Source of the DNA: a virus
Lineage: Duplodnaviria; Heunggongvirae; Uroviricota; Caudoviricetes
Direction: 5' to 3' (one strand)
IMG/VR virus record: IMGVR_UViG_2690316149_000015
Location: 1-39,222 of that record
DNA length: 39,222 nucleotides
In this document: positions 5,537 to 39,222 of the stretch, one piece after another
Position numbering within the stretch: the stretch's first letter is position 1
Layout: each line of letters begins with the position of its first letter
Notes under the pieces: generated by a model
The model's input: only the letters and a program-made list of their open reading frames with translations
Database searches by the model: none
What the model was told of the DNA's origin: nothing
Program-made: the position numbers and the translations under genes

Positions 5537-5661
5537 TAATAATTCTCAACTGTCTGAGGGGAGGGGCGGGTCAAATCTCTGCGGCCTGACGTCTTCAGGA
5601 CTGCCCGCCCCATCGTTTTTTTATACCCGCGAAAAATGAAATTTAACCAGGAGTGCCGCAT

Positions 5662-6147: not shown

Positions 6148-6160
6148 AAATCATCGAATC

Positions 6161-7894: not shown

Positions 7895-8052
7895 AATCAC
7901 TAATTGCTGATGTTATCGGGCTGGCTGGTTTTGGCCTGCTTACGTGCGGGGTTTACCTGCAGTTTGGTATGGCTCCGGCTCTGATTTTGTCCGGTGCTTT
8001 ACTGCTGGTGGGCGCACTGGCTATGGTCAGAAGGGGGACGCGTGCTGCTTGA
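7891..8052 (+). CDS. small hydrophobic protein between terminase and portal
   Basis: 53-codon ORF ([26 protein letters not shown]...) below the ORF-track cutoff; its start overlaps the TerL stop (ATGA) and its stop overlaps the likely portal start. Confidence 0.35.
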
Positions 8053-9268
8053 TGCTCTGTTCAGAAGTAAATCACTGGAGAATCCTTCCACCCCGATAAC
8101 CGGGGATGCCGTTGATACTGATGGGCTGTTCCGGGCTGACGTTTATGTCAGTCCTGAGACTGCGATGAAACTGGCTGCGGTGTATTCCTGTATCTATGTC
8201 CTGTCTTCCAGCCTTGCCCAGATGCCGTTGCATGTTATGCGCAGGCACAAGGGGAAGGTTGAACCCGCACGCGATCATCCTGCGTTTTATCTGGTTCATG
8301 ATGAGCCCAATACCTGGCAAACCAGCTACAAATGGCGCGAACTGAAGCAACGTCACATCCTTGGCTGGGGGAATGGGTATACCTGGGTGAAACGTAATCG
8401 TCGCGGTGAAGTCATATCCCTGGATTGCTGTATGCCGTGGGAAACGACGCTGATGAATACTGGTGGCCGATATACCTACGGTTTGTACAACGAATATGGG
8501 GCGTTTGCGATCAGTCCGGACGATATGATCCACATCCGTGCGCTGGGTAATAATCAGAAGATGGGGCTGAGTCCGATTATGCAACATGCCGAAACAATAG
8601 GCATGGGGATGAGCGGTCAGAAGTACACAGAAAGCTTCTTCAGCGGTAATGCCCGTCCGGCGGGGATAGTATCCGTTAAAAGCGGACTCAATAAGGAAAG
8701 CTGGGGCTGGCTTAAAGATCAGTGGCAGAAGGCATCGCAGGCGTTACGCCGCCAGGAAAACAAAACCATGCTGCTGCCAGCCGATCTGGATTACAAGGCA
8801 CTGACTGTGTCGCCAGTTGACGCTCAGATCATTGACATGATGAAGCTGAACCGTTCAATGATCGCCGGTATTTTCAATATTCCTGCGCACATGATTAATG
8901 ACCTCGAAAAAGCCACCTTCTCCAATATTTCTGCGCAGGCGATTCAGTTTGTCCGCTACACGATGATGCCGTGGGTGACGAACTGGGAGCAGGAGCTTAA
9001 CCGTCGCTTGTTTACCCGCGCTGAGTTAGCCGCCGGGTATTACGTCAGGTTCAATCTGACGGGGCTTTTACGCGGAACTCCGCAGGAGCGCGCGCAATTC
9101 TATCACTTCGCTATTACCGATGGATGGATGAGCCGTAATGAGGCCCGCGCATTCGAGGATATGAATCCGGTTGAAGGGCTGGACGAGATGCTGGTAAGCG
9201 TGAATGCTGCTAACCCGGCAGGAGATTTTAAGCCCCCAAAAAACGATGAGGGAAAAACCAATGAATGA
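8042..9268 (+). CDS. portal protein (HK97 family)
   Basis: ORF 7994..9268; the likely start is GTG at 8042, preceded by AAGGGGGA. 400+ aa, sited between terminase and prohead protease. Confidence 0.85.
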   Translation: MLLDALFRSKSLENPSTPITGDAVDTDGLFRADVYVSPETAMKLAAVYSCIYVLSSSLAQMPLHVMRRHKGKVEPARDHPAFYLVHDEPNTWQTSYKWRELKQRHILGWGNGYTWVKRNRRGEVISLDCCMPWETTLMNTGGRYTYGLYNEYGAFAISPDDMIHIRALGNNQKMGLSPIMQHAETIGMGMSGQKYTESFFSGNARPAGIVSVKSGLNKESWGWLKDQWQKASQALRRQENKTMLLPADLDYKALTVSPVDAQIIDMMKLNRSMIAGIFNIPAHMINDLEKATFSNISAQAIQFVRYTMMPWVTNWEQELNRRLFTRAELAAGYYVRFNLTGLLRGTPQERAQFYHFAITDGWMSRNEARAFEDMNPVEGLDEMLVSVNAANPAGDFKPPKNDEGKTNE

Positions 9269-22365: not shown

Positions 22366-23046
22366 ATGCATCGTATAGACACGAAAACCGCGCAGAAGGA
22401 TAAGTTCGGCGCGGGTAAGAACGGTTTTACCCGTGGTAACCCCCAGACCGGCACACCTGCCACCGATCTGGATGATGACTACTTTGACATGTTGCAGGAA
22501 GAACTTTGTAGCGTGGTGGAGGCATCCGGTGCCAGTCTGGAGAAGGCGCGGCACGACCAGCTGCTTACCGCGCTTCGTGCGCTGCTGTTAAGCCGCAAGA
22601 ATCCGTTTGGCGATATCAAATCGGATGGCACGGTGAAAACGGCTCTCGAAAACCTTGGTTTGGGAGAAGCGGCAACGAGGAACGTCGGAACGGATACCGG
22701 GCAAGTACCAGATATGAGTAGTTTTACAACGGGGCACTCTGGAGCAGCAGACTGGCCGAATTCTAAATCTGGATGGAGTAAGGGGCCGGATGGGGTAATT
22801 ACACAATGGGGTATTTTCGGTTTCCCCGTTGGACAGACAGGGACGAATGTTGTTTTCCCGCTACCTTTCCCCGCGCGGGTCGAATCAATTACACTGACAA
22901 TGGCAGATATCCAGGAGTCTCTGCTTTCTCCAACAACCATGCCTGCTTATGGAGTTAACTCAACTGGTACTTCAAGAACGGGTTTTACAGCCCGTATGTC
23001 AGGTAGCGGTGGGTTTAATCTTTGCTATATAGCGAAAGGGAGATAA
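22366..23046 (+). CDS. tail fibre protein: constant N-terminus plus currently expressed variable C-terminus
   Basis: 226 aa; the upstream Pin crossover site lies inside it at 22643-22668, encoding ALENLGLGE. Confidence 0.8.
22643..22668. promoter_or_regulatory. Hin/Gin/Pin-family inversion crossover site (left)
   Basis: 26-bp imperfect dyad CTCTCGAAAACC-TT-GGTTTGGGAGAA; the last 14 bp are identical to the reverse complement of the site at 24470-24495. Confidence 0.65.
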
Positions 23047-23050
23047 CAGA

Positions 23051-23494
23051 ATGAATAAAGTTAAAAGTGTTTACAGCCCTTCCGAAAATGCAATCTACAA
23101 CGCAGCGCTATACGAAAGTTATATCAAGGAGGGGACATGGCCGCAGGATGGTATTGAAATCAGCGATGAGGATGCTGTCAGATTTAATGGGGGAAATAAG
23201 CCAACAGGAAAAATGCTGGGAATGGTTTCAGGGGCCCTTGCATGGGTTGATGAGCCGCCGCTTTCACCAGAACAGAAAATATCAGATGCAGAAAACATGA
23301 AAGCCACATTTCGTGCAAAAGCTGACAGTGAAATATCCTGGCGTCAGGATGCTGTTGATGCGGGCATTGCAACTGATGAAGAAACTTCAACTCTCACCCA
23401 ATGGAAGAAATACCGTGTGCTGCTGATGCGTGTTGATACTTCAACAGCCCCCGATATTGAATGGCCTACGCCTCCGGCAGTTCAGGCCAGATGA
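23051..23494 (+). CDS. tail fibre assembly protein (Tfa), inside the invertible segment
   Basis: 147 aa; C-terminal region (WKKYRVLLMRVDTSTAPDIEWPTPP) typical of Tfa/U-family chaperones; converges on a second tfa on the other strand. Confidence 0.85.
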   Translation: MNKVKSVYSPSENAIYNAALYESYIKEGTWPQDGIEISDEDAVRFNGGNKPTGKMLGMVSGALAWVDEPPLSPEQKISDAENMKATFRAKADSEISWRQDAVDAGIATDEETSTLTQWKKYRVLLMRVDTSTAPDIEWPTPPAVQAR

Positions 23495-24068
23495 CATCCG
23501 GCGCGGTGCTGGTATCTGTTGCCGTCACCGCGTCGATATAATCCAGCACAACGTTAAGGCGAGTTGTTTCTGCCTGCATCAACTTCCGTCCGGCCTGCAA
23601 TTTCAGTTGAATCAGACTGATGGAAGCCATAGCAGCATCAATAAGCGACTGGCGCTGTGCTTCTGCTGCATCTACTGCGGCGCTATGCTGTGCCTCGGTA
23701 TCCGTCACCCATTTCTCACCATCCCATTCATCGTATGGCGTTAACGGGGCGATAGTGGTCGTATTTTCAGGATAATCACCCGGACCTGTGATTTCTTTCA
23801 ATTCTCCTGTTTCGGTGCTATAAACGATTTCACCGCGATGGTCTGGCACATATTCCCATGAGTTTAAATCCATCGAACGGCAGATAGCATAACCCGCCTT
23901 ATGTGTGCCAGGGGCATCTAAACAGGAATATGCAGGGATACCGACACCAATGGCAAGATATTCATTTGAAGTGGAAATATATTCCCGAGTTTCACCATCA
24001 TAGTTATAGACGGTAATATTCCCCGCCTTCGTGGCAATAAGCTCGCTATTTAATACGGCGTTATCCAT
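23466..24068 (-). CDS. alternative tail fibre assembly protein (Tfa'), inside the invertible segment
   Basis: 200 aa on the minus strand with the same C-terminal Tfa signature (TSTAPDVIWPELPE); 3' ends of the two tfa genes overlap. Confidence 0.85.
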   Translation of the reverse strand: MDNAVLNSELIATKAGNITVYNYDGETREYISTSNEYLAIGVGIPAYSCLDAPGTHKAGYAICRSMDLNSWEYVPDHRGEIVYSTETGELKEITGPGDYPENTTTIAPLTPYDEWDGEKWVTDTEAQHSAAVDAAEAQRQSLIDAAMASISLIQLKLQAGRKLMQAETTRLNVVLDYIDAVTATDTSTAPDVIWPELPEA

Positions 24069-24523
24069 TATGCAGCCCTCACGATAAAGTTAAATGCAAT
24101 ATTTCGTGGACGGGTTTCACTCCCGCCATATGATGATGTAAATCCCGAATATGCCCGGTGTCCCGCATCCGTCGTATTAGCCCAGGAAGGACCGCTAGAA
24201 GTATAGATGACCCCATTGTAATCATGGCCGTGTGCCTCAATGCTCCCGTCCTGAGCAGACAGGAGAGTCCGTCCTGAATCAATTCCTCTTCCATCATCCC
24301 ACCCACGAATGAATTCGCCGCGTAAATCTGGCAATTTATTTGTCGGATAAACTTTTGCCAGTTCCGGATACTCTTCGGCAGAAAAAGCTGCACCGTTGCA
24401 TTTCAGCCAACCTGTTGGCGGTGTGACTGAAGGCCACGGAACAGGCACACCTACGGGTAATGCAGAGCCTTCTCCCAAACCAACGTTTATGAAAATGCAG
24501 AAATAACGAGCAAATGGCATCAT
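24068..24523 (-). CDS. silent alternative tail fibre C-terminal cassette (S'v-like), expressed only after inversion
   Basis: Contains the PVGVPVPWP..GW..C..G..F tail-fibre tip motif; its 5' end encodes NVGLGE across the right crossover site, in frame with LGLGE at the left site. The ORF-track start is probably not a real start. Confidence 0.8.
   Translation of the reverse strand: MMPFARYFCIFINVGLGEGSALPVGVPVPWPSVTPPTGWLKCNGAAFSAEEYPELAKVYPTNKLPDLRGEFIRGWDDGRGIDSGRTLLSAQDGSIEAHGHDYNGVIYTSSGPSWANTTDAGHRAYSGFTSSYGGSETRPRNIAFNFIVRAA
24470..24495. promoter_or_regulatory. Hin/Gin/Pin-family inversion crossover site (right)
   Basis: TTCTCCCAAACC-AA-CGTTTATGAAAA; reverse complement TTTTCATAAACG-TT-GGTTTGGGAGAA shares the central TT and 14 bp with the left site; lies just upstream of pin. 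Confidence 0.65.
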
Positions 24524-24549
24524 TCCTGCTTTTGTCAGGGAGATCTACC

Positions 24550-25104
24550 ATGCTTATTGGCTATGTACGTGTGTCAACAAATGACCAGAACACAGATCTA
24601 CAACGTAATGCGCTGAACTGTGCAGGATGCGAGCTGATTTTTGAAGACAAGATAAGCGGTACAAAGTCCGAAAGGCCGGGACTGAAAAAACTGCTCAGGA
24701 CATTATCGGCAGGTGACACTCTGGTTGTCTGGAAACTGGACCGACTGGGGCGCAGTATGCGGCATCTTGTCGTGCTGGTGGAGGAGTTGCGCGAACGAGG
24801 CATCAACTTTCGTAGTCTGACGGATTCAATTGATACCAGTACCCCAATGGGGCGCTTTTTCTTTCATGTGATGGGTGCCCTGGCTGAAATGGAACGAGAA
24901 CTGATTGTTGAACGAACAAAAGCTGGACTGGAAGCTGCTCGCGCACAGGGACGAATTGGTGGACGTCGTCCCAAACTTACACCAGAACAATGGGCGCAGG
25001 CCGGGCGATTAATTGCATCAGGCGTTCCTCGCCAGAAGGTGGCGATCATCTATGATGTTGGTATATCGACACTGTATAAGAAGTTTCCGGTCGGAGATAA
25101 ATGA
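24550..25104 (+). CDS. pin: serine DNA invertase, Pin/Hin/Gin family
   Basis: ORF 24514..25104, start taken at MLIGYVRVSTNDQ; catalytic serine motif and C-terminal HTH; recognised as essentially the e14 PinE sequence. Confidence 0.95.
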   Translation: MLIGYVRVSTNDQNTDLQRNALNCAGCELIFEDKISGTKSERPGLKKLLRTLSAGDTLVVWKLDRLGRSMRHLVVLVEELRERGINFRSLTDSIDTSTPMGRFFFHVMGALAEMERELIVERTKAGLEAARAQGRIGGRRPKLTPEQWAQAGRLIASGVPRQKVAIIYDVGISTLYKKFPVGDK

Positions 25105-25105
25105 A

Positions 25106-25143
25106 ACCGTAGCACGTCGTATGCAAGAAGATCGTGCTGCGGT
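25106..25143. terminator. putative bidirectional hairpin between convergent pin and GIY-YIG genes
   Basis: ACCGTAGCACG ... CGTGCTGCGGT, an 11-bp stem with one mismatch and a 16-nt loop, in the 60-bp gap between the two stop codons. Confidence 0.35.
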
Positions 25144-25164
25144 TTATGCTTATCACTTAAAGAC

Positions 25165-26034
<870 letters not shown>

Positions 26035-26117
26035 CTAACCCTTTGAATTTACATAGCGCAAAAAGATACCTTTCCTCATAATGTGAGCTAATTTTATGTT
26101 TCGTTTGATGATCGGGT

Positions 26118-26179
26118 CGGTCTCGAAAACCGGAGTAGGGGCAACTCTACCGGGGGTTCAAATCCCCCTCTCTCCGCCA
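26118..26179 (+). other. partial tRNA-Ser (serU-like, anticodon CGA) 3' fragment; probable prophage attR core
   Basis: CGGTCTCGAAAACCGGAGTAGGGGCAACTCTACCGGGGGTTCAAATCCCCCTCTCTCCGCCA matches my recollection of the serU 3' 62 nt (anticodon loop, variable arm, T arm, acceptor 3' strand, CCA). No D-arm or 5' acceptor sequence upstream. Confidence 0.65.
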
Positions 26180-26278
26180 CTTTATCAATGACTTATCTCC
26201 CGACTTCCCGCCTTGCTTTTCCTAAACAGAACAATCGTAGAATATTCTTGAAGGGTTAGATCGTCACTGTTTTCTGTT

Positions 26279-26505
26279 CAGAACAGAAAATATCAGATGC
26301 AGAAAACATGAAAGCCACATTTCGTGCAAAAGCTGACAGTGAAATATCCTGGCGTCAGGATGCTGTTGATGCGGGCATTGCAACTGATGAAGAAACTTCA
26401 ACTCTCACCCAATGGAAGAAATACCGTGTGCTGCTGATGCGTGTTGATACTTCAACAGCCCCCGATATTGAATGGCCTACGCCTCCGGCAGTTCAGGCCA
26501 GATGA
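26279..26505 (+). pseudogene. 5'-truncated tail fibre assembly gene (copy 2 of tfa 3' part)
   Basis: Duplicate of the tfa C-terminal 75 codons only; the N-terminal part is missing because the repeat unit starts inside tfa. Confidence 0.7.
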
Positions 26506-27079
26506 CATCCGGCGCGGTGCTGGTATCTGTTGCCGTCACCGCGTCGATATAATCCAGCACAACGTTAAGGCGAGTTGTTTCTGCCTGCATCAACTTCCGT
26601 CCGGCCTGCAATTTCAGTTGAATCAGACTGATGGAAGCCATAGCAGCATCAATAAGCGACTGGCGCTGTGCTTCTGCTGCATCTACTGCGGCGCTATGCT
26701 GTGCCTCGGTATCCGTCACCCATTTCTCACCATCCCATTCATCGTATGGCGTTAACGGGGCGATAGTGGTCGTATTTTCAGGATAATCACCCGGACCTGT
26801 GATTTCTTTCAATTCTCCTGTTTCGGTGCTATAAACGATTTCACCGCGATGGTCTGGCACATATTCCCATGAGTTTAAATCCATCGAACGGCAGATAGCA
26901 TAACCCGCCTTATGTGTGCCAGGGGCATCTAAACAGGAATATGCAGGGATACCGACACCAATGGCAAGATATTCATTTGAAGTGGAAATATATTCCCGAG
27001 TTTCACCATCATAGTTATAGACGGTAATATTCCCCGCCTTCGTGGCAATAAGCTCGCTATTTAATACGGCGTTATCCAT
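26477..27079 (-). CDS. alternative tail fibre assembly protein (copy 2)
   Basis: Identical translation to 23466..24068. Confidence 0.8.
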   Translation of the reverse strand: MDNAVLNSELIATKAGNITVYNYDGETREYISTSNEYLAIGVGIPAYSCLDAPGTHKAGYAICRSMDLNSWEYVPDHRGEIVYSTETGELKEITGPGDYPENTTTIAPLTPYDEWDGEKWVTDTEAQHSAAVDAAEAQRQSLIDAAMASISLIQLKLQAGRKLMQAETTRLNVVLDYIDAVTATDTSTAPDVIWPELPEA

Positions 27080-27534
27080 TATGCAGCCCTCACGATAAAG
27101 TTAAATGCAATATTTCGTGGACGGGTTTCACTCCCGCCATATGATGATGTAAATCCCGAATATGCCCGGTGTCCCGCATCCGTCGTATTAGCCCAGGAAG
27201 GACCGCTAGAAGTATAGATGACCCCATTGTAATCATGGCCGTGTGCCTCAATGCTCCCGTCCTGAGCAGACAGGAGAGTCCGTCCTGAATCAATTCCTCT
27301 TCCATCATCCCACCCACGAATGAATTCGCCGCGTAAATCTGGCAATTTATTTGTCGGATAAACTTTTGCCAGTTCCGGATACTCTTCGGCAGAAAAAGCT
27401 GCACCGTTGCATTTCAGCCAACCTGTTGGCGGTGTGACTGAAGGCCACGGAACAGGCACACCTACGGGTAATGCAGAGCCTTCTCCCAAACCAACGTTTA
27501 TGAAAATGCAGAAATAACGAGCAAATGGCATCAT
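27079..27534 (-). CDS. silent tail fibre C-terminal cassette (copy 2)
   Basis: Identical translation to 24068..24523. Confidence 0.75.
   Translation of the reverse strand: MMPFARYFCIFINVGLGEGSALPVGVPVPWPSVTPPTGWLKCNGAAFSAEEYPELAKVYPTNKLPDLRGEFIRGWDDGRGIDSGRTLLSAQDGSIEAHGHDYNGVIYTSSGPSWANTTDAGHRAYSGFTSSYGGSETRPRNIAFNFIVRAA
27481..27506. promoter_or_regulatory. second copy of the right inversion crossover site
   Basis: Position of 24470-24495 plus 3011 within the identical repeat. Confidence 0.6.
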
Positions 27535-27560
27535 TCCTGCTTTTGTCAGGGAGATCTACC

Positions 27561-28115
27561 ATGCTTATTGGCTATGTACGTGTGTCAACAAATGACCAGA
27601 ACACAGATCTACAACGTAATGCGCTGAACTGTGCAGGATGCGAGCTGATTTTTGAAGACAAGATAAGCGGTACAAAGTCCGAAAGGCCGGGACTGAAAAA
27701 ACTGCTCAGGACATTATCGGCAGGTGACACTCTGGTTGTCTGGAAACTGGACCGACTGGGGCGCAGTATGCGGCATCTTGTCGTGCTGGTGGAGGAGTTG
27801 CGCGAACGAGGCATCAACTTTCGTAGTCTGACGGATTCAATTGATACCAGTACCCCAATGGGGCGCTTTTTCTTTCATGTGATGGGTGCCCTGGCTGAAA
27901 TGGAACGAGAACTGATTGTTGAACGAACAAAAGCTGGACTGGAAGCTGCTCGCGCACAGGGACGAATTGGTGGACGTCGTCCCAAACTTACACCAGAACA
28001 ATGGGCGCAGGCCGGGCGATTAATTGCATCAGGCGTTCCTCGCCAGAAGGTGGCGATCATCTATGATGTTGGTATATCGACACTGTATAAGAAGTTTCCG
28101 GTCGGAGATAAATGA
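27561..28115 (+). CDS. pin: serine DNA invertase Pin (copy 2)
   Basis: Identical translation to 24550..25104. Confidence 0.9.
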   Translation: MLIGYVRVSTNDQNTDLQRNALNCAGCELIFEDKISGTKSERPGLKKLLRTLSAGDTLVVWKLDRLGRSMRHLVVLVEELRERGINFRSLTDSIDTSTPMGRFFFHVMGALAEMERELIVERTKAGLEAARAQGRIGGRRPKLTPEQWAQAGRLIASGVPRQKVAIIYDVGISTLYKKFPVGDK

Positions 28116-28175
28116 AACCGTAGCACGTCGTATGCAAGAAGATCGTGCTGCGGTTTATGCTTATCACTTAAAGAC

Positions 28176-29045
<870 letters not shown>

Positions 29046-29128
29046 CTAACCCTTTGAATTTACATAGCGCAAAAAGATACCTTTCCTCATAATGTGAGCT
29101 AATTTTATGTTTCGTTTGATGATCGGGT

Positions 29129-29190
29129 CGGTCTCGAAAACCGGAGTAGGGGCAACTCTACCGGGGGTTCAAATCCCCCTCTCTCCGCCA
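29129..29190 (+). other. partial tRNA-Ser 3' fragment (copy 2)
   Basis: Duplicate of 26118..26179 within the tandem repeat. Confidence 0.6.
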
Positions 29191-29774
29191 CTTTATCAAT
29201 GACTTATCTCCCGACTTCCCGCCTTGCTTTTCCTAAACAGAACAATCGTAGAATATTCTTGAAGGGTTAGATCGTCACTGTTTTCTGTTCGATACTGTGA
29301 CATTCAGCACTTGATTCGCTATGGATCTGACAGGAAGGTTTCGAGCGAAAATCTGCAGTTATTCAGTCGTTTTCTTATCGGTCACCATTATTCTTTTAGA
29401 CATTGATCCTACAAAGCTGCCGCAAAGTTGGTGGTGGGAACTGAAGTTGCGTAGAGAAGGGGTCAATACCCGGAGGCACACATGGGCTGGCAAAAGTGTA
29501 GCGGTATTAGGCGCAGCTATTTAGCCTAGTTATGTTTTATGAAAACTTGATGTCATATAAGTGTCTTACTTATTGGCTGTAAATAAGTTTTTTCTAAGGA
29601 ATTGTTTCTTGAGTATCATTTGTAACTGTAACGGAATTTATAATCCTTTGCTTTATTGTTACGGTATTTTTTATCACACCCTATTTTTTATGTGGTTTTT
29701 TATACTGAAGTTTGGCAAAGTGAACTTTATATGCATATACTTCATCCTAGTTTCAGTTAAATTGGGTGGATGAT

Positions 29775-30518
29775 ATGGCAACTACATGTTCAGTTATATT
29801 GATTATGGAGTCCTTTGATGTTTATTTCGGAAAAGAGAGTGTGTTTCTGGAGAGAGGTTCATCTGTACTTGTCGATTCTAGCTCTAGAGATTTTTTCCTG
29901 ACATATCCTGAAAGAGTGATAGTGGCGGATTTTGGCGCTGAGTTTATTAGTCGCTATTTGAAAGCTAATAACTTAAGGGATATTTCTGATTGTAGGGAAT
30001 ATCCATCTTATTTAAAAATAAACTTTGTTGACTTCAGTTTAATTAAAGGATTAATTAGTTGGGCTAATCACTGTGCTGAATACATAGAAATTTTTGATGA
30101 GTCTATTGCTTTTACATGTCTCTCTGCATTTTCTTCTGAAAAACAATTTGGAGTATTTCTGTTTGGATGTTTGAAAAGCACAGGGGCTAAAGTTAAAACG
30201 ATTATTCATACGGATTTATCTGCACCATGGCGTCTTAAGGATATATCATCAAGATTATATCTCAGCGAAAGTTTACTAAAGAGGAAATTGAAAGAAGAGG
30301 GGGTATCATTCAGTAAGATCATACTTGATGAGAGGATGCAAATGGCTGAATATTTACTCAGCACTCGTTGTTATCCTATTAGTAAAGTAGCTAAGGTCTG
30401 TGGTTATGCCAGTGTCTCATACTTTACTTATGTATTTAGACGTTATTTTGGTGTTTCTCCAAGTCAATACTCTCAGAGGAGTTCAGAAAGTAAAATTCTT
30501 ACTCACCAGGGAATCTGA
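29775..30518 (+). CDS. AraC/XylS-family transcriptional regulator (AppY/EnvY-like)
   Basis: ORF 29766..30518 starts at GTG; ATG at 29775. C-terminal double HTH (WRLKDISSRLYLSESLLKRKLKEEGVSFSKII...KVAKVCGYASVSYFTYVFRRYFGVSPSQY) resembles AppY/EnvY as I recall them; the gene sits in a strongly AT-rich block. Confidence 0.85.
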   Translation: MATTCSVILIMESFDVYFGKESVFLERGSSVLVDSSSRDFFLTYPERVIVADFGAEFISRYLKANNLRDISDCREYPSYLKINFVDFSLIKGLISWANHCAEYIEIFDESIAFTCLSAFSSEKQFGVFLFGCLKSTGAKVKTIIHTDLSAPWRLKDISSRLYLSESLLKRKLKEEGVSFSKIILDERMQMAEYLLSTRCYPISKVAKVCGYASVSYFTYVFRRYFGVSPSQYSQRSSESKILTHQGI

Positions 30519-30522
30519 TCAT

Positions 30523-30787
30523 TGTTCTTGCCCCCTTATTTCCAGACAGGGGGTGTATCTTAAGTTAACGTTACCCGCTGACGTCGATATTCTCGCGGAG
30601 AGCGATAACCCAACGCACTGTGCGGATGGTTTTCATTGTAATATTCGATCGCCACTGCAAGATTATGCAATGCCGTTCTTACATTCGGTTTCGGCATGAA
30701 CGCGATGTAGACTTCCTTCATCGTTTTCACGAACCTTTCTGCCATTCCATTACTCTGAGGACTGCTGATTACCCATGAGGAGTACAA
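30523..30787 (-). mobile_element. IS2-group (IS3 family) remnant: terminal inverted repeat plus transposase C-terminal fragment
   Basis: TGTTCTTGCCCCCTTATTTCCAGACA at 30523 resembles the IS2 terminal repeat; ORF 30560..30787 ends ...[14 protein letters not shown]...[18 protein letters not shown], like an IS2 OrfB C-terminus, with the upstream transposase missing. Confidence 0.65.
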
Positions 30788-31007
30788 TTAAACGGGTTAA
30801 TCAGTTTCTCCATTTGAAAGAAAAAAGACTTCTGTACTGTTTGATATCACCGCTATTTTCTTATTTTCTGTGCAGGTCGTAGTGGGACAAAACTGAGACA
30901 CATAAGGCCTCACAATGGCTTGCAAGGCTTTACATGTTTTGATGTGGTGGGACGTGTGAGCGCAGTGTTGATGGGGTAATGCTTTGAATTAGAAGCGGAT
31001 TCTTATA

Positions 31008-31053
31008 ATTCGTAATGCGAAGGTCGTAGGTTCGACTCCTATTATCGGCACCA
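31008..31053 (+). other. partial tRNA-Thr (thrW-like) 3' fragment; island att core
   Basis: ATTCGTAATGCGAAGGTCGTAGGTTCGACTCCTATTATCGGCACCA matches my recollection of the thrW 3' 46 nt from the anticodon loop to CCA; the 5' half of the tRNA is not upstream. Confidence 0.65.
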
Positions 31054-31381
31054 TTTATATCAAGCAATTACGATTAAATCCTCTCTTTGTCTGCATCATG
31101 ATTTTTTCCGTGTAACTCCATGTGTAAGTAATTTTCGTCAACATAAATCAACAATAGAGCATCCGTATCTCAGATTGGCTCAGTCTTGTTGATTTTTTCA
31201 TCTTGATGAAACAATATTTCTGATATTGATGTTGGACATTTGGGGGGCAGCTTAGCAGGCCTGTACAGGTTGTTTCATTGATTATTACTCTATATGCCTG
31301 CCCTTTTAGATAGCCCTTTCCTGTCTACTTCCATCTATGGTGTAATCCCTTGCGAGATTAAGGTTTCTTTCGAGAGATAGT

Positions 31382-32041
31382 ATGGAATTATTCGAAAATT
31401 ATTTGTCAGCGTTACCTAAAAAAAAGCGATTGAGTAAAGTCAAGTTGATTATCCTAAAGAGATTATGGGTTTCAGATGATTTTGATTTTCCTAAACCTTG
31501 GGTCCCATCGACAGAATTACTGGAATTGACAGGGCAAAAGTACTTCGATAGACGAACAAGAGAGTTGCGTGATGAACTAGGCTGTGATCTCGAAAGCTCG
31601 TACATTCCGGAATTCTCGGGACATGCTTGGCGGCTGAAATCAAGCATGATTGCCCCGCCAATGGAAAGGGAATATCTGACAGAATCACAACGATCCAGTT
31701 TATTTTCTAACTGCAGCAATACATGTGCAACATGTGGTAAAACTGTTGCCGCTGGGGTCAGGGGGCTACAAGCGGATCACAAAATACCTTTGTCACGCGG
31801 TGGTGGAAATGAGTTAACCAATTGGCAAGCTCTTTGCCACAATTGCAACGTAGGTAAGAGAAGAGCATGTGAGGGATGTACTGAAGATTGTTACACATGC
31901 TCATGGGCATTTCCTGAAAAATTTGGGATAACAACAATGCTCCATCTGCCAGAAGCTAGTTTAAGAAGAGCCCAACAACTAGCTGATGCAAAGGGTTTTT
32001 CTTTAGACGAAATCGTTGACTACGCAATACGCAAGCTTTGA
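31382..32041 (+). CDS. HNH endonuclease with N-terminal putative recognition domain and C-terminal RHH-like tail (candidate restriction endonuclease)
   Basis: 219 aa; zinc-binding HNH core (CATCGK...QADHKIPLSRGGGNELTNWQALCHNCN) plus a second Cys cluster (CEGCTEDCYTC); the 3' end overlaps the convergent methyltransferase gene by 22 bp. Confidence 0.8.
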   Translation: MELFENYLSALPKKKRLSKVKLIILKRLWVSDDFDFPKPWVPSTELLELTGQKYFDRRTRELRDELGCDLESSYIPEFSGHAWRLKSSMIAPPMEREYLTESQRSSLFSNCSNTCATCGKTVAAGVRGLQADHKIPLSRGGGNELTNWQALCHNCNVGKRRACEGCTEDCYTCSWAFPEKFGITTMLHLPEASLRRAQQLADAKGFSLDEIVDYAIRKL

Positions 32042-33090
32042 ACATCATTCGATTCCAGTGGTGATGCCAACTGTTTTTTTTTCATTAGATCAACCGCTTC
32101 GAGTGCTTTACGAATTTGCCTTCCTGTTGCTTCGGCAACAGGAGGAGGAAAAGCGTTACCTACTTGACGATAAGCAGCTGTTTTTTTCCCAGAGAATTCC
32201 CACCAGTCCGGGAAACCTTGGATTCGTGCAGCCATTCTCACCGTCAAACGAGGCATATTTTCAAGACCTGCTCGAATATTTCCGTCTCTTCCAATATACC
32301 CAGTAAACCCCTTTTCAGGGCTACTATCAGCTATGGAATGCCCGTTGACTCCAAGCGCTTGCCAAGCTTTTTTGGCTCTCGTCGGTCCAAGGTCTGGACC
32401 TCCATGCTTATGGGAACCGCCAACAAGTGTAGGGGCTATATTGTTAGCGGCCTTTCTCCATGCCTCGGCTCCTTCCCAGCCACCCTGTGACATTAAGTCA
32501 AAGAGAGCATCACCCACAGTCGGTGGTATCAACGTTTCACTCGGCCAACGAAAATGAGCGGAATACTTACCACGCAATGCAACTAAAAGAACTCGGGGAC
32601 GAAGCTGAGGAACTCCGTAATCAGAAGCGTTATGAAGTTTCCAAAAGGTTTTATAACCCATTGCAGAGAAAGCATGATCTAGTTCTTGTCGGTATTGTTT
32701 AAACTTTGGGTCTAATAAACCTGAAACATTTTCAATCATTACTGCTTTTGGCTTAATGATGTTCACAATTTTGAGCGCTGTTGGAAACAAATCACGTTCA
32801 TCATCTTTGCCTAGTTGTTTCCCTGCTTTTGAGAATGGCGGGCAGGGCACTCCCCCTGCGACCAAGTCAATATCAGAAAAATTATATGCAGTATGTTCAG
32901 CAAAATGCTTAACGCAACCCTCTATGATATTTTCCCAACCTAAAGAATGGAGCTCATTGTTGAGGCGAAGAGTTTCGCAGGCTGCAGGATCAATCTCGAC
33001 GAGCGCGCGGTGAGTGAAGCCAGCGTTATGTAACCCTAGAGCTTGACCTCCTGCCCCTGCACAAATCTCTACAGATGTGTATTGTAACAT
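32020..33090 (-). CDS. DNA (cytosine-5)-methyltransferase
   Basis: 356 aa with canonical C5-MTase motifs: I (EICAGAGG), IV (GGVPCPPFSKAG), VI (ENV), VIII (QLRPRVLLVA), X (GNAFPPPVA). Confidence 0.9.
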   Translation of the reverse strand: MLQYTSVEICAGAGGQALGLHNAGFTHRALVEIDPAACETLRLNNELHSLGWENIIEGCVKHFAEHTAYNFSDIDLVAGGVPCPPFSKAGKQLGKDDERDLFPTALKIVNIIKPKAVMIENVSGLLDPKFKQYRQELDHAFSAMGYKTFWKLHNASDYGVPQLRPRVLLVALRGKYSAHFRWPSETLIPPTVGDALFDLMSQGGWEGAEAWRKAANNIAPTLVGGSHKHGGPDLGPTRAKKAWQALGVNGHSIADSSPEKGFTGYIGRDGNIRAGLENMPRLTVRMAARIQGFPDWWEFSGKKTAAYRQVGNAFPPPVAEATGRQIRKALEAVDLMKKKQLASPLESNDVQSLRIA

Positions 33091-33885
33091 GTCATTAAAC
33101 CTGTATATAAAAACAGTTGTATGTTTATCTGATCAGAGACCATTACGCAACAAATTGTACAAAACAAGTAGTACCGTCGCTATTGAACCGGTCAGCTTAG
33201 TTACTTGATTGCTGAATGACAAGGCAATCTACAACTTTGTTTTGGAATCCTATATTTATCAAATAACTAACATTCGACAGTACTATTGGCATTCTCTTGA
33301 TCAGACAGGCAGAATCTCATGTGGACTGAATAAAATGCCTTAGCTGAGTACGAAAAGAACTACTATCTGTTTACATGATTTTTTGTCCGTAAGATGCATT
33401 GCGTCCGCTGTAAATAGCAGACGCATTCTGCAGAGAACAAATGAATAAGAAAGATTGGCACGCTGCTTGTGGAATTCAGCTTTGGCTTCGTCGCAACATG
33501 TCGGTTGTTTGTCGTGCTCGTAAGATATCTACGGTCTGAAGATAATGTGATTGCTCCCGCCTGCTCAACACTCTGTTATCGATACGAATCAGTTCGTACT
33601 TATCTACTAGGAAGTTGACTGTATCGGCTAAGGGGAATCCCGTTTTCAATATGTACCTTCATAACAGTGTCGTCAATGCGCTGCGTATCGTTAAGAGTCA
33701 GGCTGTAGTGTTTGTCCTGCAGGTATGTAACTAGGGGCTGTCAGACGGTTACAGAGGACTTCGCCACACGTTTTCGGGATATAGGTAAAATTCTCATCGT
33801 CGGTTATTCTGCGAATAAAAGAAATTAATTGCGGACGGGTTTTTCGCGGTACGTCACTGTCGTATGGCAGCCAGCGTATCTTGGT

Positions 33886-34294
33886 TTATGCCCTGCTCCG
33901 TATTGTTATGTCGGTCGGTATGGCATAATGCAGTCCTAGCTTTTTCATCGCTGGCAAATGTACCAGTGCGAACCGAAGGGGGGATTCACCGATCATCCTT
34001 TTCGCATACAGCGTGACGGTCTGCTGATGACGGGGATTCAGTTCACCGCTGGTGAACATGAGTTCCAGTTGTTTCATCAGCAGTGGAAAGGCTTGGTCCA
34101 GATGGTATGCATCCGCATCGCTGAACCGGCCTCTGATACCGGCGCGGTCTGCAAGGTAATGCAACTGATTGCCCTCCTGCACCAGACGGGCGCCAAAACG
34201 GGGTGTCACTGTCACGAACGGTGCAGGGCAGCCCCCACCAGGGGCGGTCGTGATTGTCGTCGGGATAATTTGTTTCATGGAGCGTGTCTGACAC
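33886..34294 (-). pseudogene. CbeA/YeeU/YfjZ-family antitoxin, frameshifted and 3'-truncated; cognate toxin absent
   Basis: MSDTL..DDNHDRPWWGLPCTV is in one frame (ORF 34043..34294), the continuation TVTPRFGARLVQEGNQLHYLADRAGIRG...TLYAK in another (ORF 33886..34308); family resemblance stops after TLYAK at about 34000. No toxin-sized ORF downstream. Confidence 0.6.
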
Positions 34295-34373
34295 GATAAA
34301 ATCCTCACAGAAAATCGGTTAAGAACGGTCAGGTAATGTCGATAATTCTGCTCATCAGAATGCCCTTACTGAC

Positions 34374-34595
34374 TCAGTTCAGAGTGACGCTCATCAGCCG
34401 GACATACGGGCCAAAACTGTCCTTACGGCGTTCTGCAAACACGGCCAGCACACCGGGAATATCCTGCACTTCACGACCGGTATACTCTTCAGTGCTGCCG
34501 TGCCAGCGGTACTTACCGGCACAGAACGGGAAAAGACGGGATGCAGGATGCTGGCGGTGAATACGCATGGCTTCACCACGGGTGATAATTTTCAT
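34374..34595 (-). CDS. DUF987-family protein (YeeT/YkfH/YpjJ-like)
   Basis: 73-aa translation MKIITRGEAMRIHRQHPASRLFPFC... recognised as the YeeT family; conserved position between the RadC-like gene and the antitoxin. Confidence 0.85.
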   Translation of the reverse strand: MKIITRGEAMRIHRQHPASRLFPFCAGKYRWHGSTEEYTGREVQDIPGVLAVFAERRKDSFGPYVRLMSVTLN

Positions 34596-34657
34596 AATGG
34601 GATACCTCTGAAGACAGAAGATAAAAGTGAAAACAGGTGTGATGTGGTTGTGAAGGG

Positions 34658-35149
34658 TTAAAGCAGACCATGTTCGGCAAAGGAGAAAACCTGGTTGCCA
34701 CCGACTATCAGATGGTCCGGCACCCGGATATCCACCAGAGCCAGTGCCTGTACCAGACGCTCAGTGATAAGCCGGTCTGCCTTACTGGGTGTAATTTCAC
34801 CGGACGGGTGATTGTGTGCCAGCACCACGGCAGCGGCATTGTGGTACAGGGCGCGTTTAATCACTTCCCGGGGATGGACTTCCGTGCGGTTGATGGTGCC
34901 GGTGAAGAGGGTTTCACCGGCAATCAGCTGATTCTGGTTGTTCAGATACAGCACCCGGAACTCTTCACGCTCTAGTCCCGCCATGTTCAGAATCAGCCAT
35001 TCCCGTGCTGCACGGGTGGAGGTGAAGGCCACGCCGGGTTCATGAAGATGGCGGTCCAGGGTTTTCAGGGCCCGCAGAATGAGACTGCGCTCGCCGGGCG
35101 TCATCTCTCCGGGCAGAAAGGAAAGCTGCTGCATTGTCCCTGCCTCCAT
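34658..35149 (-). CDS. RadC-like JAB/MPN-domain protein (YeeS/YkfG/YfjY-like)
   Basis: 163 aa with the JAMM-like motif HNHPSG; conserved in CP4-type islands. Confidence 0.9.
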   Translation of the reverse strand: MEAGTMQQLSFLPGEMTPGERSLILRALKTLDRHLHEPGVAFTSTRAAREWLILNMAGLEREEFRVLYLNNQNQLIAGETLFTGTINRTEVHPREVIKRALYHNAAAVVLAHNHPSGEITPSKADRLITERLVQALALVDIRVPDHLIVGGNQVFSFAEHGLL

Positions 35150-35632
35150 TCAGTCGATGATGCGCATAATGGCGCTGCATTCCGGATGCTGCAGGGCGTA
35201 ATCCCGCAACCGGTAATAATGGACCGTCATGGCATAACACTCCGTACGACAGGCATGATGACTGTACGTCATCAGACAGGCGGTAATGCCAGCTGCTTTC
35301 GGGCTCATTTCAGCGCGGTTACCGTTCATGGCACTGAACAGTATCCAGGTTTCATCATCGTCATCCGGTTCAGGGGCCATAAATGCCCCGCCGTTGTTCA
35401 GGGGGTACAGATTCCAGATACCACCACAGTAGTCTTCACACAGACGGTCCATCCAGCCAAAGATACGGGGCTCCAGGGTTACCCACTGTGGAATGAGGCT
35501 AAAGTGCTGCGGCCAGAAGCTGATGCGCTGTTCATCAGGGACGGGAGTGGCAACCAGTTGAGACTGGTTATTCCCTGATGCCGCAGTCACGGAAACAGAA
35601 GGTGTGGTGGAGCTATGCGAAAAGGTTGTCAT
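35150..35632 (-). CDS. antirestriction protein, ArdB/KlcA-like (YfjX/YafX family)
   Basis: 160-aa translation recognised as the YfjX/YafX family (WNLYPLNNGGAFMAPEPDDDD...); start overlaps the radC-like stop. Confidence 0.8.
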   Translation of the reverse strand: MTTFSHSSTTPSVSVTAASGNNQSQLVATPVPDEQRISFWPQHFSLIPQWVTLEPRIFGWMDRLCEDYCGGIWNLYPLNNGGAFMAPEPDDDDETWILFSAMNGNRAEMSPKAAGITACLMTYSHHACRTECYAMTVHYYRLRDYALQHPECSAIMRIID

Positions 35633-35723
35633 GAGATTATTCCTTATAAAAAGTAAATGAATGGAAGAATGCCTGGGGACTGGTACAGACGTGAGTCAGG
35701 GCTGCACTTTCAGGGAAACAGCA

Positions 35724-36602
35724 TCAGCGCATGCTCTTCAGCAGCGTTTCTGCCATCACCCACAATGCGCGATTGAGCTTAATGTCCGTGTCGATGCTGT
35801 GAATGGCACGGGTGTGGATACGTTTTCCTTTAGCGCTGCGACCGGAAATCCCGCCTTTCAGCATATTTTCCTGGATGGTCTGATAAGCACTCCACAGGTC
35901 CTTACCGTAATCCTCCCGGCGTCGTGGTGTCAGAATGTCAGCGGTGGTGACCGGCTGATGTTTATCACCATAACGGTAAGTCAGTGCCGCCTGTGCCAGC
36001 GCCTGACGTGCCGGTGGCGGCAGAACCAGCGACTGCATGGCATCACGCTTCTCCTCTATCCGGTCAAACACGCCCACCACCTCGTAAGCCCCTTCAATAA
36101 CTTTCTCCACCACATTTCCCCGGTGCGGAACACGCACTTCCCCCAGAGACTGACCACAGACACACCCGTTCTGGCAGACGAACCTGAAGTAACCCGGCAG
36201 CATCTGGTAGCTGGAGGTACCGTCATGGGAGTTGAGCAGAATGATTTCAGGGACATGTTGTCCGTTTATCTCCCCGTCACGGCGCAGACGCAGCATGTGT
36301 TTGGTATACCCCCGGCGGCCCGGGTCACGTACGCGGGTCTGGCAGGCGAAGAATGGCTGAAAGCCTTCCCGCTGCAGGCTTTCCAGCACTGTGATGGTGG
36401 GGATGTACGAATACCGTTCACTGCGGGAGGTATGCCGGTCTTCCCCAAAAATGCTGGGAACATAGTGCATCAGTTCTTCATGGGTCAGTGGGCGGTCACG
36501 GCGTATCTGATTAATCCGTCCGAAGCGACTGGCTAATCGCATAATTAACTCCTTATCTGATAATGAAATAAAAGCAAAAAGGCCATGTCCCCGGAGGAAC
36601 AT
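35724..36602 (-). CDS. DUF932-family protein (YfjQ/YafZ-like)
   Basis: 292 aa; family recognised from conserved CP4-island gene order and sequence. Confidence 0.75.
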   Translation of the reverse strand: MFLRGHGLFAFISLSDKELIMRLASRFGRINQIRRDRPLTHEELMHYVPSIFGEDRHTSRSERYSYIPTITVLESLQREGFQPFFACQTRVRDPGRRGYTKHMLRLRRDGEINGQHVPEIILLNSHDGTSSYQMLPGYFRFVCQNGCVCGQSLGEVRVPHRGNVVEKVIEGAYEVVGVFDRIEEKRDAMQSLVLPPPARQALAQAALTYRYGDKHQPVTTADILTPRRREDYGKDLWSAYQTIQENMLKGGISGRSAKGKRIHTRAIHSIDTDIKLNRALWVMAETLLKSMR

Positions 36603-36631
36603 GGCCTGATGGAATATATTATTGCTGATGA

Positions 36632-37570
36632 TTAATGTTGCTGATTTTTCTCTTTAACTTTTGACCATGAGGGGCGTCGGTTGCCGGAAAATTCCTTCTG
36701 CATTGACCAGTAACCAATCGGGAACTGCTTCACCAGCACCCCGTTGATACCAATATCGACGGACAGATACTGACCGTTGTTGATGCTGCCCTTGCGGATG
36801 TACGCATCCGCACTGCAGGTGCCGGTATCATACTGCCGCCATGTTGCGGTATCGCGGGCGGCAACATAAAAATCACCGAAAGCACAGCCCGTTGCTGACT
36901 TACGATTCAGAACGGCAACGTAATACTTAGTGTTGGCTATAATGGCGCAACTGCTGCTCTGACCGCCGCAGACCTGCCATAACGTTTTGCCGCTGTCACC
37001 CTTAAAGGTCCAGATAGTGTCTGCCGGTGCGCCGTCTGTATGTGTTACTGGCAATGCCGGAGCCTGCTGCACTGGTGTAACGTCGGGTACGTCGCGGCGT
37101 AATAGTCGTGCTTCAGCATCCCCGACATCGCCAAACATGTTTTCCTCTCCGCTGTTGTAATAAAAACCGGCAATAACATGTTCTGAGGGGATATACAGTA
37201 TTTTCAGATAATGGTCACCGCAATTACCCCGCTCACAGACAGACCCCAGCAGCCACTTCTCGTCACCAACGATCACCGGAATTAATCCACTGTCAGGGCC
37301 GTTCATGGAGCCCTGTTTTCCCGTTAACCCGGTGAGTCCTGCTGACTTCAGCGCATCATCAAGGTCTTTCTTGAATACCGGGTCAGCATCGTAGATACTG
37401 CCCAGAAAGGGGCAGGAACCGTATCCGTTTTCATTATCACCAGCATCAGGATCACAGCGCATTGCATCTGCTGCCGTTTTTGCGACACCGGCAGCGTAAA
37501 CTCCGGTGGAAATAAAACAAAGCGAGGATATCAGTATTACCTGTTTTAATTTACGTAATACAAGAAACAT
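36632..37570 (-). CDS. hypothetical secreted protein (signal peptide, Cys-rich)
   Basis: 312 aa; N-terminal hydrophobic signal with AxA-like cleavage site (VYAAG); multiple cysteines; no recognised catalytic motif. Confidence 0.6.
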   Translation of the reverse strand: MFLVLRKLKQVILISSLCFISTGVYAAGVAKTAADAMRCDPDAGDNENGYGSCPFLGSIYDADPVFKKDLDDALKSAGLTGLTGKQGSMNGPDSGLIPVIVGDEKWLLGSVCERGNCGDHYLKILYIPSEHVIAGFYYNSGEENMFGDVGDAEARLLRRDVPDVTPVQQAPALPVTHTDGAPADTIWTFKGDSGKTLWQVCGGQSSSCAIIANTKYYVAVLNRKSATGCAFGDFYVAARDTATWRQYDTGTCSADAYIRKGSINNGQYLSVDIGINGVLVKQFPIGYWSMQKEFSGNRRPSWSKVKEKNQQH

Positions 37571-37635
37571 GATTATTTTTACTCCATCCTGTTTATATAA
37601 AAGAAACGGGCTCCGTGAAGAGCCCTGTAAAAAAT

Positions 37636-38046
37636 TTAAAAGTCAATGGTATTAAGACCGACATTCTTTTTGATGGAGGGATCGTAAATAACAACGGTAA
37701 GATGGTCTTTGTCTGAAGAACGGACAAACTTAGCGGTGGCCTCACCACTGCATGTTGCATGACGGTTATAATCCATCATTTTACCTTTGCTGGTAGCAAG
37801 ATTGACAACGATGATATAAGGATCATAACAGGCCGAACCTCCCGGACTGCTCAGCAAGGCATATTTGCCATCATCAGAGACACCAATGAGGCTGCATATC
37901 CCGTCTTTTACATCCTCACTTCCGCACATCTGCTCACTTCCATCTTTCACATCAATCACAGTACGGGGTAATTTAACCTCTGTAGCATTAACTGATGCAC
38001 TCAACAACAAACCTGAAACTATTAATGACAATATAAACGCTTTCAT
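37636..38046 (-). CDS. hypothetical secreted protein
   Basis: 136 aa; signal peptide MKAFILSLIVSGLLLSASVNA; several cysteines. Confidence 0.6.
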   Translation of the reverse strand: MKAFILSLIVSGLLLSASVNATEVKLPRTVIDVKDGSEQMCGSEDVKDGICSLIGVSDDGKYALLSSPGGSACYDPYIIVVNLATSKGKMMDYNRHATCSGEATAKFVRSSDKDHLTVVIYDPSIKKNVGLNTIDF

Positions 38047-38136
38047 ATACTCATCCTGTTTATCATTACGGGGGATATATTCCTTTTATCTGCTCATGAA
38101 CCACAAGCAGGGCCTGTTGTCGGCCCTGTGGAATAA

Positions 38137-38361
38137 TTAACGTTCGTCCCGGTCCCGTAAAACCTTTCGCGCCAGACGTTTTTCCATCTCCGTTACACTG
38201 CTGAAAATACCGTTGTCGGTGATAATTCTCTTTAGCTCTTCGCTGCTCCTGGTCTCCAGTCGGTCATGAAGAGTTTTTACCTCCTGTGCACTGTTGAGGG
38301 CGTCTTTTGCAACCTCTTTAAGCAGTTTCCCGGTTACACTCCAGAATCCCATGGGAGCCAC
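38137..38361 (-). CDS. hypothetical small protein
   Basis: 74-aa ORF in an operon-like array downstream of the zinc-ribbon gene; no motif. Confidence 0.4.
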   Translation of the reverse strand: MAPMGFWSVTGKLLKEVAKDALNSAQEVKTLHDRLETRSSEELKRIITDNGIFSSVTEMEKRLARKVLRDRDER

Positions 38362-38363
38362 CT

Positions 38364-38513
38364 TTACAGATAACCGTTATCTTTGCCCCACTCACACCCG
38401 CAGTCCCGGCACATCCAGCCATCGGCCCAGGGAATGGTGTCGTGGGAGCCACAGTCCGGGCAGCGTTTGCCGGAGGTCGGGTTACCGGGTGTGATACGTC
38501 TTATTTTCATCAT
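38364..38513 (-). CDS. small zinc-ribbon protein
   Basis: ORF 38364..38570; likely start MMKIRR at 38513 after an AAGGA ribosome-binding site; CxxC...CxxC (CPDCGS...CRDCGC); start sits 1 nt after the WYL regulator stop. Confidence 0.5.
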   Translation of the reverse strand: MMKIRRITPGNPTSGKRCPDCGSHDTIPWADGWMCRDCGCEWGKDNGYL

Positions 38514-38514
38514 G

Positions 38515-39222
38515 TTATCCTTCTGTTGCGGGTTGATGTGGTTCAGGGCATAAGCCGGACAGCACTTCACCTATGAACCGGAAATGAGGTAATGCCTGTA
38601 AAAATTTCGGGCGAGAAAGGATGTCGCGCACCGTGGCGTCGGGTGTAAAAGTGTCCGGATGAAGCGTGACGCACCGGATATCAGTCAGTGGCAGTGCGAT
38701 GATGCGTGTCTGGTGTGCCCCTGTCAGATACCAGCTACCGGCATGCAGAACCAGGCGGTAGGGTGAGATATCCGTATGGTTGCATCCGTTGCCGTGCAGA
38801 GTCACTTTCCGGTATTCCTGGACAGCATTTACCAGCCGGATAAAGACTCCACTGTCGGTGACGGTCTGTGCAGAATCTCCCTGCCAGATAAGGCAGGGAG
38901 ATTCACCCGGCCCACCCAGAAGTGAACTGACCAGATGTCCGTCAAGTCCCGGAAACAGGGACTCAACGCCCGACTGACGGGCAAAGGTTATCACTGCCAG
39001 TTCCCGCTGACGGCTGCCGGACAGCAGACGGCACTGGCCCTGTCGATACTCCAGGTCCAGGTACATCAGTCGTTCACGAAAATCCCGGCGCAGGGTACGA
39101 ACTGACACGTCAAATTCAGCAGCCAGTTTGCGTATATCCAGCGTTTCGCCTGCCACCAGACGGCTAATAATTATCGACAGTCTGACGGCAAGCCGGTCAT
39201 GGCGATGCTCAGCCTGAGTCAT
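38515..39222 (-). CDS. HTH-WYL domain transcriptional regulator (YfjR-like)
   Basis: 235 aa; N-terminal HTH (LAVRLSIIISRLVAGE...) and WYL motif (HAGSWYL); ATG lies at the window edge, so the N-terminus is probably complete but cannot be confirmed. Confidence 0.8.
   Translation of the reverse strand: MTQAEHRHDRLAVRLSIIISRLVAGETLDIRKLAAEFDVSVRTLRRDFRERLMYLDLEYRQGQCRLLSGSRQRELAVITFARQSGVESLFPGLDGHLVSSLLGGPGESPCLIWQGDSAQTVTDSGVFIRLVNAVQEYRKVTLHGNGCNHTDISPYRLVLHAGSWYLTGAHQTRIIALPLTDIRCVTLHPDTFTPDATVRDILSRPKFLQALPHFRFIGEVLSGLCPEPHQPATEG

Follow-up and report, generated by a model that had tools for sequence, protein, structure and literature searches.

Features of the right part of the window

The window, by which we mean the whole stretch of 39,222 nucleotides analysed, carries in its right part a tail-fibre region, a DNA invertase gene (pin), a cargo gene of the GIY-YIG nuclease family, a 3′ fragment of the tRNA-Ser gene serU (serU′), an AraC-family regulator gene, an IS remnant and a 3′ fragment of the tRNA-Thr gene thrW (thrW′), beyond which lies a chromosomal island. 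Part of this region, including serU′, is present twice. The features are listed with their coordinates, their strand where one applies, and the evidence for each.

22650–24488: invertible tail-fibre segment between the pix crossover sites 22650–22669 and 24469–24488 (inverted repeat)
23268–26278: tandem duplication unit 1, 3,011 bp (100% identity at offset 3,011)
24514–25104, + strand (second copy 27525–28115): Pin-type serine DNA invertase (Pfam Resolvase and HTH_7; annotated pinE in relatives)
25165–25989, − strand (second copy 28176–29000): LEM-3-like cargo gene of the GIY-YIG nuclease family (Pfam PF22945; RefSeq annotation in relatives)
26118–26179, + strand: serU′ copy 1 (exact match to K-12 serU; no intact tRNA by ARAGORN)
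26180–26278, + strand: native downstream flank of serU, copy 1, comprising its first 99 nt and ended by the duplication joint (K-12 serU alignment)
26269–26289: novel duplication joint, a perfect palindrome, TTTTCTGTTC-A-GAACAGAAAA
26279–29289: tandem duplication unit 2 (identity at offset 3,011)
29001–29128, + strand (copy 1 at 25990–26117): phage arm of a serU-type attR, between the GIY-YIG gene and the core (same arm at the true serU in relatives)
29129–29190, + strand: serU′ copy 2, identical to copy 1
29191–29468, + strand: native downstream flank of serU, 278 nt, on the yodB side (K-12 serU-locus alignment)
29766–30518, + strand: AraC-family regulator cargo gene (Pfam HTH_AraC and HTH_18; AraC-family annotation at the equivalent place in H10407 and O157:H7)
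30560–30772, − strand: IS remnant, a partial integrase-core/transposase gene (RefSeq annotation at the equivalent H10407 position; BLAST end points)
30883–31007, + strand: SfV-type attP arm directly left of the thrW core (95–96% identical to the annotated attP/int regions of SfII, SfIV, SfV and SfI)
31008–31053, + strand: thrW′, a 46-nt 3′ fragment of tRNA-Thr(CGU), thrW positions 31–76, the actual attR on the right side of the prophage (core exact in the SfV attP; RM9387 identity starts here)
31054–39222: chromosomal island downstream of thrW, outside the prophage (100% identical to RM9387 beyond its intact thrW; Pfam)

The 62-mer at 26118–26179 begins with CGGTCTCGAAAACCGG and ends with CTCTCCGCCA (in full, CGGTCTCGAAAACCGGAGTAGGGGCAACTCTACCGGGGGTTCAAATCCCCCTCTCTCCGCCA), and an exact second copy is located at 29129–29190. 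It is identical at 62 of 62 positions to positions 29–90 of K-12 serU (b1975, tRNA-Ser CGA, 90 nt) and spans the gene from the 5′ side of the anticodon stem to the CCA end. Because this match is exact over 62 nt, the identity to serU cannot, on sequence grounds, be put down to chance. ARAGORN found no intact tRNA in the window, and the 5′ half of serU′ is missing, which agrees with an earlier sequence-only reading of this DNA that had recognised a tRNA-Ser 3′ fragment lacking its 5′ half. Across the region, Rfam returned only partial tRNA-like matches, all of them below the gathering thresholds; the sub-threshold matches include IS009, tRNA-Sec and Plastid-psbl-rps4, of which the latter two appear to reflect the tRNA-like T-arm.

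The similarity to the serU locus was found to run past the CCA end for 278 nt of native downstream flank (29191–29468). The whole serU-locus match comprises 349 nt, is 96.8% identical to K-12 and ends at about 29468. This flank is, as judged from the alignment, host DNA captured along with an old attR. Structurally, serU′ is an attR-type junction, with a phage arm on its left and the native serU flank on its right.

The AraC-family gene sits where O157:H7 has its OI-8 regulator. The OI-8 regulator PatE corresponds to z0321 (PMC10877973), and from the matching position the gene in the window may be of the PatE type of acid-resistance and LEE regulators of EHEC. The IS remnant follows, and homology to lambdoid phages stops inside it, at 30770 according to the BLAST alignments.

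Right border of the prophage

To locate the right border, we compared the DNA beyond the IS remnant with known attachment regions. Positions 30883–31071 were 95–96% identical to the attP/int region of SfV, SfII, SfI and SfIV. The 46-nt core in this segment was identical to the 3′ end of thrW and to the core of the SfV attP, and the arm on its phage side was homologous to the known attP arm. On the host side, the sequence matched an unoccupied site: strain RM9387 carries proA, an intact thrW and then the island, and from thrW position 31 onwards it is 100% identical to window positions 31008–39222. By these sequence matches, the actual right attachment site of the prophage is thrW′ at 31008–31053, with its SfV-type arm, and not serU′, to which the sequence-only reading had given this role.

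The same right end was found in ETEC H10407, in which tail fibre, tfa, pinE, GIY-YIG, serU′, AraC, IS remnant and thrW′ follow one another as in the window. At the left end of the H10407 prophage, an intact thrW lies directly after proA, together with an integrase 98% identical to SfV Int. In 50 kb of upstream DNA in H10407, tRNA-Ser and the 62-mer were both absent, and the only elements of this kind were tRNA-Thr (thrW) and the SfV-like Int. The left end of the window's own prophage lies outside the window, and by analogy with H10407, the closest complete analogue, it presumably also consists of thrW and an SfV-like Int. An intact tRNA-Ser gene had been expected in the upstream DNA, an expectation that the H10407 comparison contradicts. 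No complete genome covered at least 80% of the left 9 kb of the window (1–9000).

With the border at thrW′, serU′ is positioned inside the prophage, 1.8 kb (copy 2) or 4.9 kb (copy 1) from the thrW′ junction. The fragment does follow the GIY-YIG gene, as had been described; the accompanying statement that this was the last cargo gene does not hold, since the AraC gene and the IS remnant precede the real border. Taking serU′ as the border would place the right end 1.8–4.9 kb too far to the left, exclude the AraC-family gene from the prophage, and predict the wrong integration site and the wrong integrase. A tRNA 3′ fragment beside phage genes is insufficient for calling a prophage border.

The island to the right of thrW′ (31054–39222) encodes an HNH protein, a Dcm methylase, remnants of a CbtA/YeeU toxin-antitoxin system, RadC/JAB, antirestriction, DUF932 and WYL proteins. 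The island is CP4-6-like, and no integrase adjoins thrW′. In H10407 and O157:H7, the place of the island is taken by a second integrase together with a P4-like satellite. The DNA to the right of thrW′ thus differs between strains, indicating that thrW hosts strain-variable tandem arrays.

The prophage was further compared with two known groups. With the Shigella serotype-converting phages SfV, SfII, SfI and SfIV, which use thrW, it shares the identical 46-nt core, an attP arm of 95–96% identity and a myovirus structural module organised alike, and the H10407 Int is 98% identical to SfV Int. Those phages carry the gtrABV O-antigen modification genes next to attP, whereas the window has pin, the GIY-YIG gene, the serU fossil, the AraC gene and the IS remnant instead. 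The prophage e14 of K-12 is a defective remnant that is integrated in icd and carries mcrA. The window shares with e14 a homologous late/tail region (YmfQ, invertible fibres of the StfE/TfaE type, and PinE with pix sites, by RefSeq names in relatives). In contrast to e14, the window holds a full-length prophage at thrW, with the GIY-YIG gene in the position of mcrA; integration in icd goes with a duplicated 3′ end of icd, and the right junction here is thrW′.

Tandem duplication and its joint

The presence of two identical serU′ copies was traced to a larger repeat. Positions 23268–26278 and 26279–29289 are 100% identical and directly abutting, with a unit of 3,011 bp and an ambiguity of 1 bp. 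The second 62-mer at 29129–29190 is therefore there because the whole block is repeated in perfect tandem; the exact duplication of the fragment, which had been noted before, stands, and it is part of a 3,011-bp tandem block rather than a 62-nt repeat. According to Pfam, the unit starts in the middle of a tail-fibre assembly gene and contains the 3′ part of tfa, a tfa gene on the − strand, an alternative fibre C-terminus (− strand), the right-hand pix site, pin, the GIY-YIG gene (− strand) and serU′ with 99 nt of its flank.

The pix inverted repeat is 20 nt long (AAACCTTGGTTTGGGAGAAG) and 95% complementary. The duplication created a third pix site at 27480–27499; with one site on the left and two on the right, two alternative inversions are possible in principle. 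The gene order of the Pin-invertible segment (22650–24488) is apparently opposite to the orientation in H10407.

At the joint between the two units, the perfect palindrome of 10 + 1 + 10 nt arises from 10-bp terminal inverted repeats of the 3,011-bp unit. Palindrome arms of at least 10 nt occurred in about 1.5e-5 of random virtual joints. Direct microhomology at the joint amounted to at most 1 bp. The joint was found in 0 of 5,426 complete E. coli genomes and was absent from the viral and metagenome collections. The Rfam match to IS009, an sRNA candidate family, lies over the joint (26268–26456) with 55 bits against a gathering score of 117; it is probably due to homology with tail-fibre-assembly coding sequence and not to an RNA gene.

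Two candidate sources of the duplication were rejected. The Pin invertase does not fit, as the pix sites (22650–22669, 24469–24488 and 27480–27499) differ from the breakpoints 23268/26278 and the AAACC..GGTTT motif is missing at the joint. The IS3-family element within the window raised the idea of an IS3-family tandem dimer as the source of the palindromic joint. Elements of this family end in TG...CA, and the unit ends are GAACAG...CTGTTC.

The block would have been duplicated in tandem very recently, or it was mis-assembled. That the duplication and the second serU′ copy are an assembly artefact, with no counterpart in the genome, is a serious possibility to which we give somewhat less than even credence. 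The 100% identity of the units, the absence of the joint from all 5,426 complete E. coli genomes and from the other collections, and the read heterogeneity that an invertible segment in this region could bring all speak for it, whereas the breakpoints do not fall on pix sites and the perfect palindromic joint, rarely expected by chance, points to a specific molecular event. Tandem duplications of recent date are also frequent in bacteria. The two 62-mers could further be read as attL and attR of a separate mobile element of about 3 kb at a serU-like site, given that they are identical, in direct orientation and 3,011 bp apart. This we regard as next to impossible, because the identity is strictly tandem and extends at 100% over the full 3,011 bp, the 62-mers lie 99 nt inside the right end of the unit instead of at its boundaries, the unit starts within a tail-fibre assembly gene, and the single-copy arrangement is known from hundreds of genomes, the joint from none. 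Whether the duplication is real or an artefact, the two serU′ 62-mers are not independent att sites.

A further repeated stretch was observed in the left part of the window. Genes for an HNH endonuclease and a small terminase occur twice (2084–3045 and 5118–6147), with about 89% identity over the first 300 nt, and between the copies lie an IS3-family orfA/orfB (3258–4429, − strand) and a 117-aa ORF (4700–5053, − strand). Located immediately upstream of the large terminase gene, the segment 2070–6147 resembles another duplication, older than the first, or a recombination scar.

Relatives at serU, spread of the cassette and proposed origin of the scar

Relatives resident at the true serU locus were sought with a chimeric query that combined the GIY-YIG arm of the window, serU′ and its flank with K-12 sequence reaching into yodB. 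The query was fully covered in three genomes, MB15, BS15R-A and RMDEC332. The MB15 locus reads mtfA, intact serU, three cargo genes, a tyrosine integrase of 328 aa, a complete prophage, pinE, GIY-YIG, serU′ and yodB, and the 62-mer occurs twice, 39,180 bp apart, as direct repeats bounding a prophage of about 39 kb. Up to about 29468, most of the MB15 prophage matches the window prophage at 95–98% nucleotide identity. The MB15 integrase and SfV Int are unrelated, with 31% identity over a stretch of 58 aa. The MB15-type order shows that the arrangement proposed in the sequence-only reading exists in relatives; integration in a tRNA-Ser gene is true of these serU residents, and for the window prophage it fails at the right junction, which is thrW′. 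Since the same junction is present at the true serU locus in these relatives, serU′ of the window can be read as a fossil attR.

The crossover point was narrowed by strain 4433 of ST131, in which unrelated DNA takes over from the same arm right behind ...CCGGTCTCGAAAACCG. A joint at this point puts the integrase crossover at the anticodon stem-loop. An anticodon-loop crossover class of tRNA-gene integration was reportedly set out by Williams in NAR in 2002. In ST131 4433 (NZ_CP103672.1, about 3370–3450), the same GIY-YIG gene and serU-type arm end a lambdoid-type prophage, and after the anticodon stem-loop sequence GGACCGGTCTCGAAAACCG the arm is followed by DNA with a Dcm methylase and a type II restriction endonuclease. 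The joint may represent a secondary-site integration or a further rearrangement at the crossover point.

We then examined the distribution of the segment to the right of the arm. A cassette at 29128–30770, starting one base before the 62-mer and including the flank, the AraC gene and part of the IS remnant, was 98.7–99.1% identical in the lambdoid phage records mEp332, ev099 and PhiR70_1, where it lies between the tail-fibre genes and int-xis. Among these is mEp332, a K-12 phage that forms plaques. Strain VG48B2 has the cassette at the right end of a lambdoid prophage by ybhB-bioA, the att-lambda locus. The Int of ev099 is of a third, different type, and its Int and Xis are lambda-sized. The left arm of the ev099-type lambdoid phages is itself a genuine serU-type arm: in 130 genomes it adjoins serU′ with the native flank that leads into yodB. 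The two unrelated arms, that of the myovirus with the GIY-YIG gene and that of the ev099-type lambdoid phages, meet the cassette at the identical nucleotide. The order GIY-YIG, serU′, AraC was present in 413 of 5,426 complete E. coli genomes (about 8%). Copies of the cassette occur in up to 11 places per genome.

Beside an intact serU, the cassette was found in none of the 5,426 complete E. coli genomes and in none of the species-representative genomes; the phages that bear it have thus never been seen using serU. The idea that the cassette forms the P′ side of a functional lambdoid serU-type attP was rejected on this count (intact serU with the cassette in 0/5,426 genomes), as well as on the lambda-sized Int and Xis of ev099 and the location of the VG48B2 prophage at ybhB-bioA. 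Neither the complete E. coli genomes nor the GTDB species representatives yielded a donor chromosome in which the AraC gene is a native neighbour of serU. Host DNA contiguous with the att core inside a phage genome, as imprecise excision would leave it, is present in the mEp332, ev099 and PhiR70_1 records. The junction at +278 bears no diagnostic signature, and the IS remnant lies nearby. A literature search returned no description of this serU fossil.

Taken together, we consider it very probable that serU′ is a fossil attR and that the resident prophage sits in thrW with an SfV-type att/int module and thrW′ as its true attR. An ancestor of the SfV/e14-like myovirus, or a phage that recombined with this ancestor, would have integrated in serU through a tyrosine integrase crossing over at the anticodon stem-loop, displacing a 3′ fragment of the tRNA gene. 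An illegitimate joining would have fused the serU attR and 278 bp of chromosome to the cassette of AraC regulator and IS remnant, most likely by imprecise excision of the specialised-transduction type or by an IS-associated rearrangement, and this joining would have turned the old attR into internal phage DNA. Later module exchange may have placed the cassette in phages using thrW or att-lambda. The serU′ scar probably has no role in excision of the window prophage.

Two other explanations of the scar were weighed against the fossil attR. In one of them, serU′ is still a functional attR, with an intact serU and an integrase beyond the left edge of the window, as the sequence-only reading had it. 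Its core, the 3′ part of serU from the anticodon stem-loop on, and its arm-and-flank anatomy are those of an attR, and MB15-type relatives realise the arrangement at serU; the host side, however, does not reach yodB but is broken off after 278 nt by the AraC gene, the IS remnant, the SfV-type attP arm and thrW′, and what follows thrW′ is an unoccupied thrW locus, not a serU locus with yodB. H10407 shares the right end but has thrW and an SfV-like Int at the other, where serU sequence, and with it an intact tRNA-Ser plus integrase, is lacking; this explanation is highly improbable. The other explanation holds that the fossil core is still active, as a secondary attB for serU-type integrases at which phages exchange arms or modules. 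It would account for the cassette being met at one nucleotide by both the GIY-YIG arm of the myovirus and the ev099-type arm of the lambdoid phages, each of which also occurs as a genuine serU-type attR arm at the true serU (the former in 3 genomes, the latter in 130), and the anticodon stem-loop, where crossover takes place, is kept in the fossil. Homologous recombination in the 340 bp shared with the true serU attR would give the same breakpoints, and no nested prophage was present at the fossil among the loci examined; an active core therefore seems unlikely to us. The meeting of unrelated arms at one nucleotide would be explained either by homologous recombination in the shared 340 bp or by integrase recombination at the core. 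If the core were active, it would be a portable secondary attB borne by phage genomes and open to serU-type integrases of co-resident phages, and site-specific recombination between phages would be a driver of mosaicism in which whole arms are swapped.

As a fossil attR, serU′ resembles the scars left at tRNA genes by integration in that it spans the anticodon stem to the CCA end and separates a phage arm from native host flank; it differs from them in that it bounds nothing, lies inside a prophage bounded by thrW′ and has its flank cut at 278 nt. A likeness to specialised-transducing phages (lambda gal/bio) is seen in the att-adjacent host DNA within the phage genome and in the plaque-forming carrier mEp332. 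In contrast to those phages, only 278 bp of non-coding host DNA are involved, the piece is fixed and widespread in natural lineages, and it travels with integration modules for other sites, thrW and att-lambda. A relic attachment site is a well-known kind of feature, and the present one is a useful boundary correction and an example of integration-site switching. It would be a natural record of a change of integration specificity, from serU to thrW or att-lambda, with the old junction and a sliver of host DNA retained, and it can now be found in about 8% of the complete E. coli genomes and in no fewer than two unrelated types of virion.

Many serU loci of E. coli showed a further class of repeat, with a start only some 13 nt ahead of the CCA end (matches from query position 478). 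From this it seems that serU also serves another element family, one whose core is much shorter.
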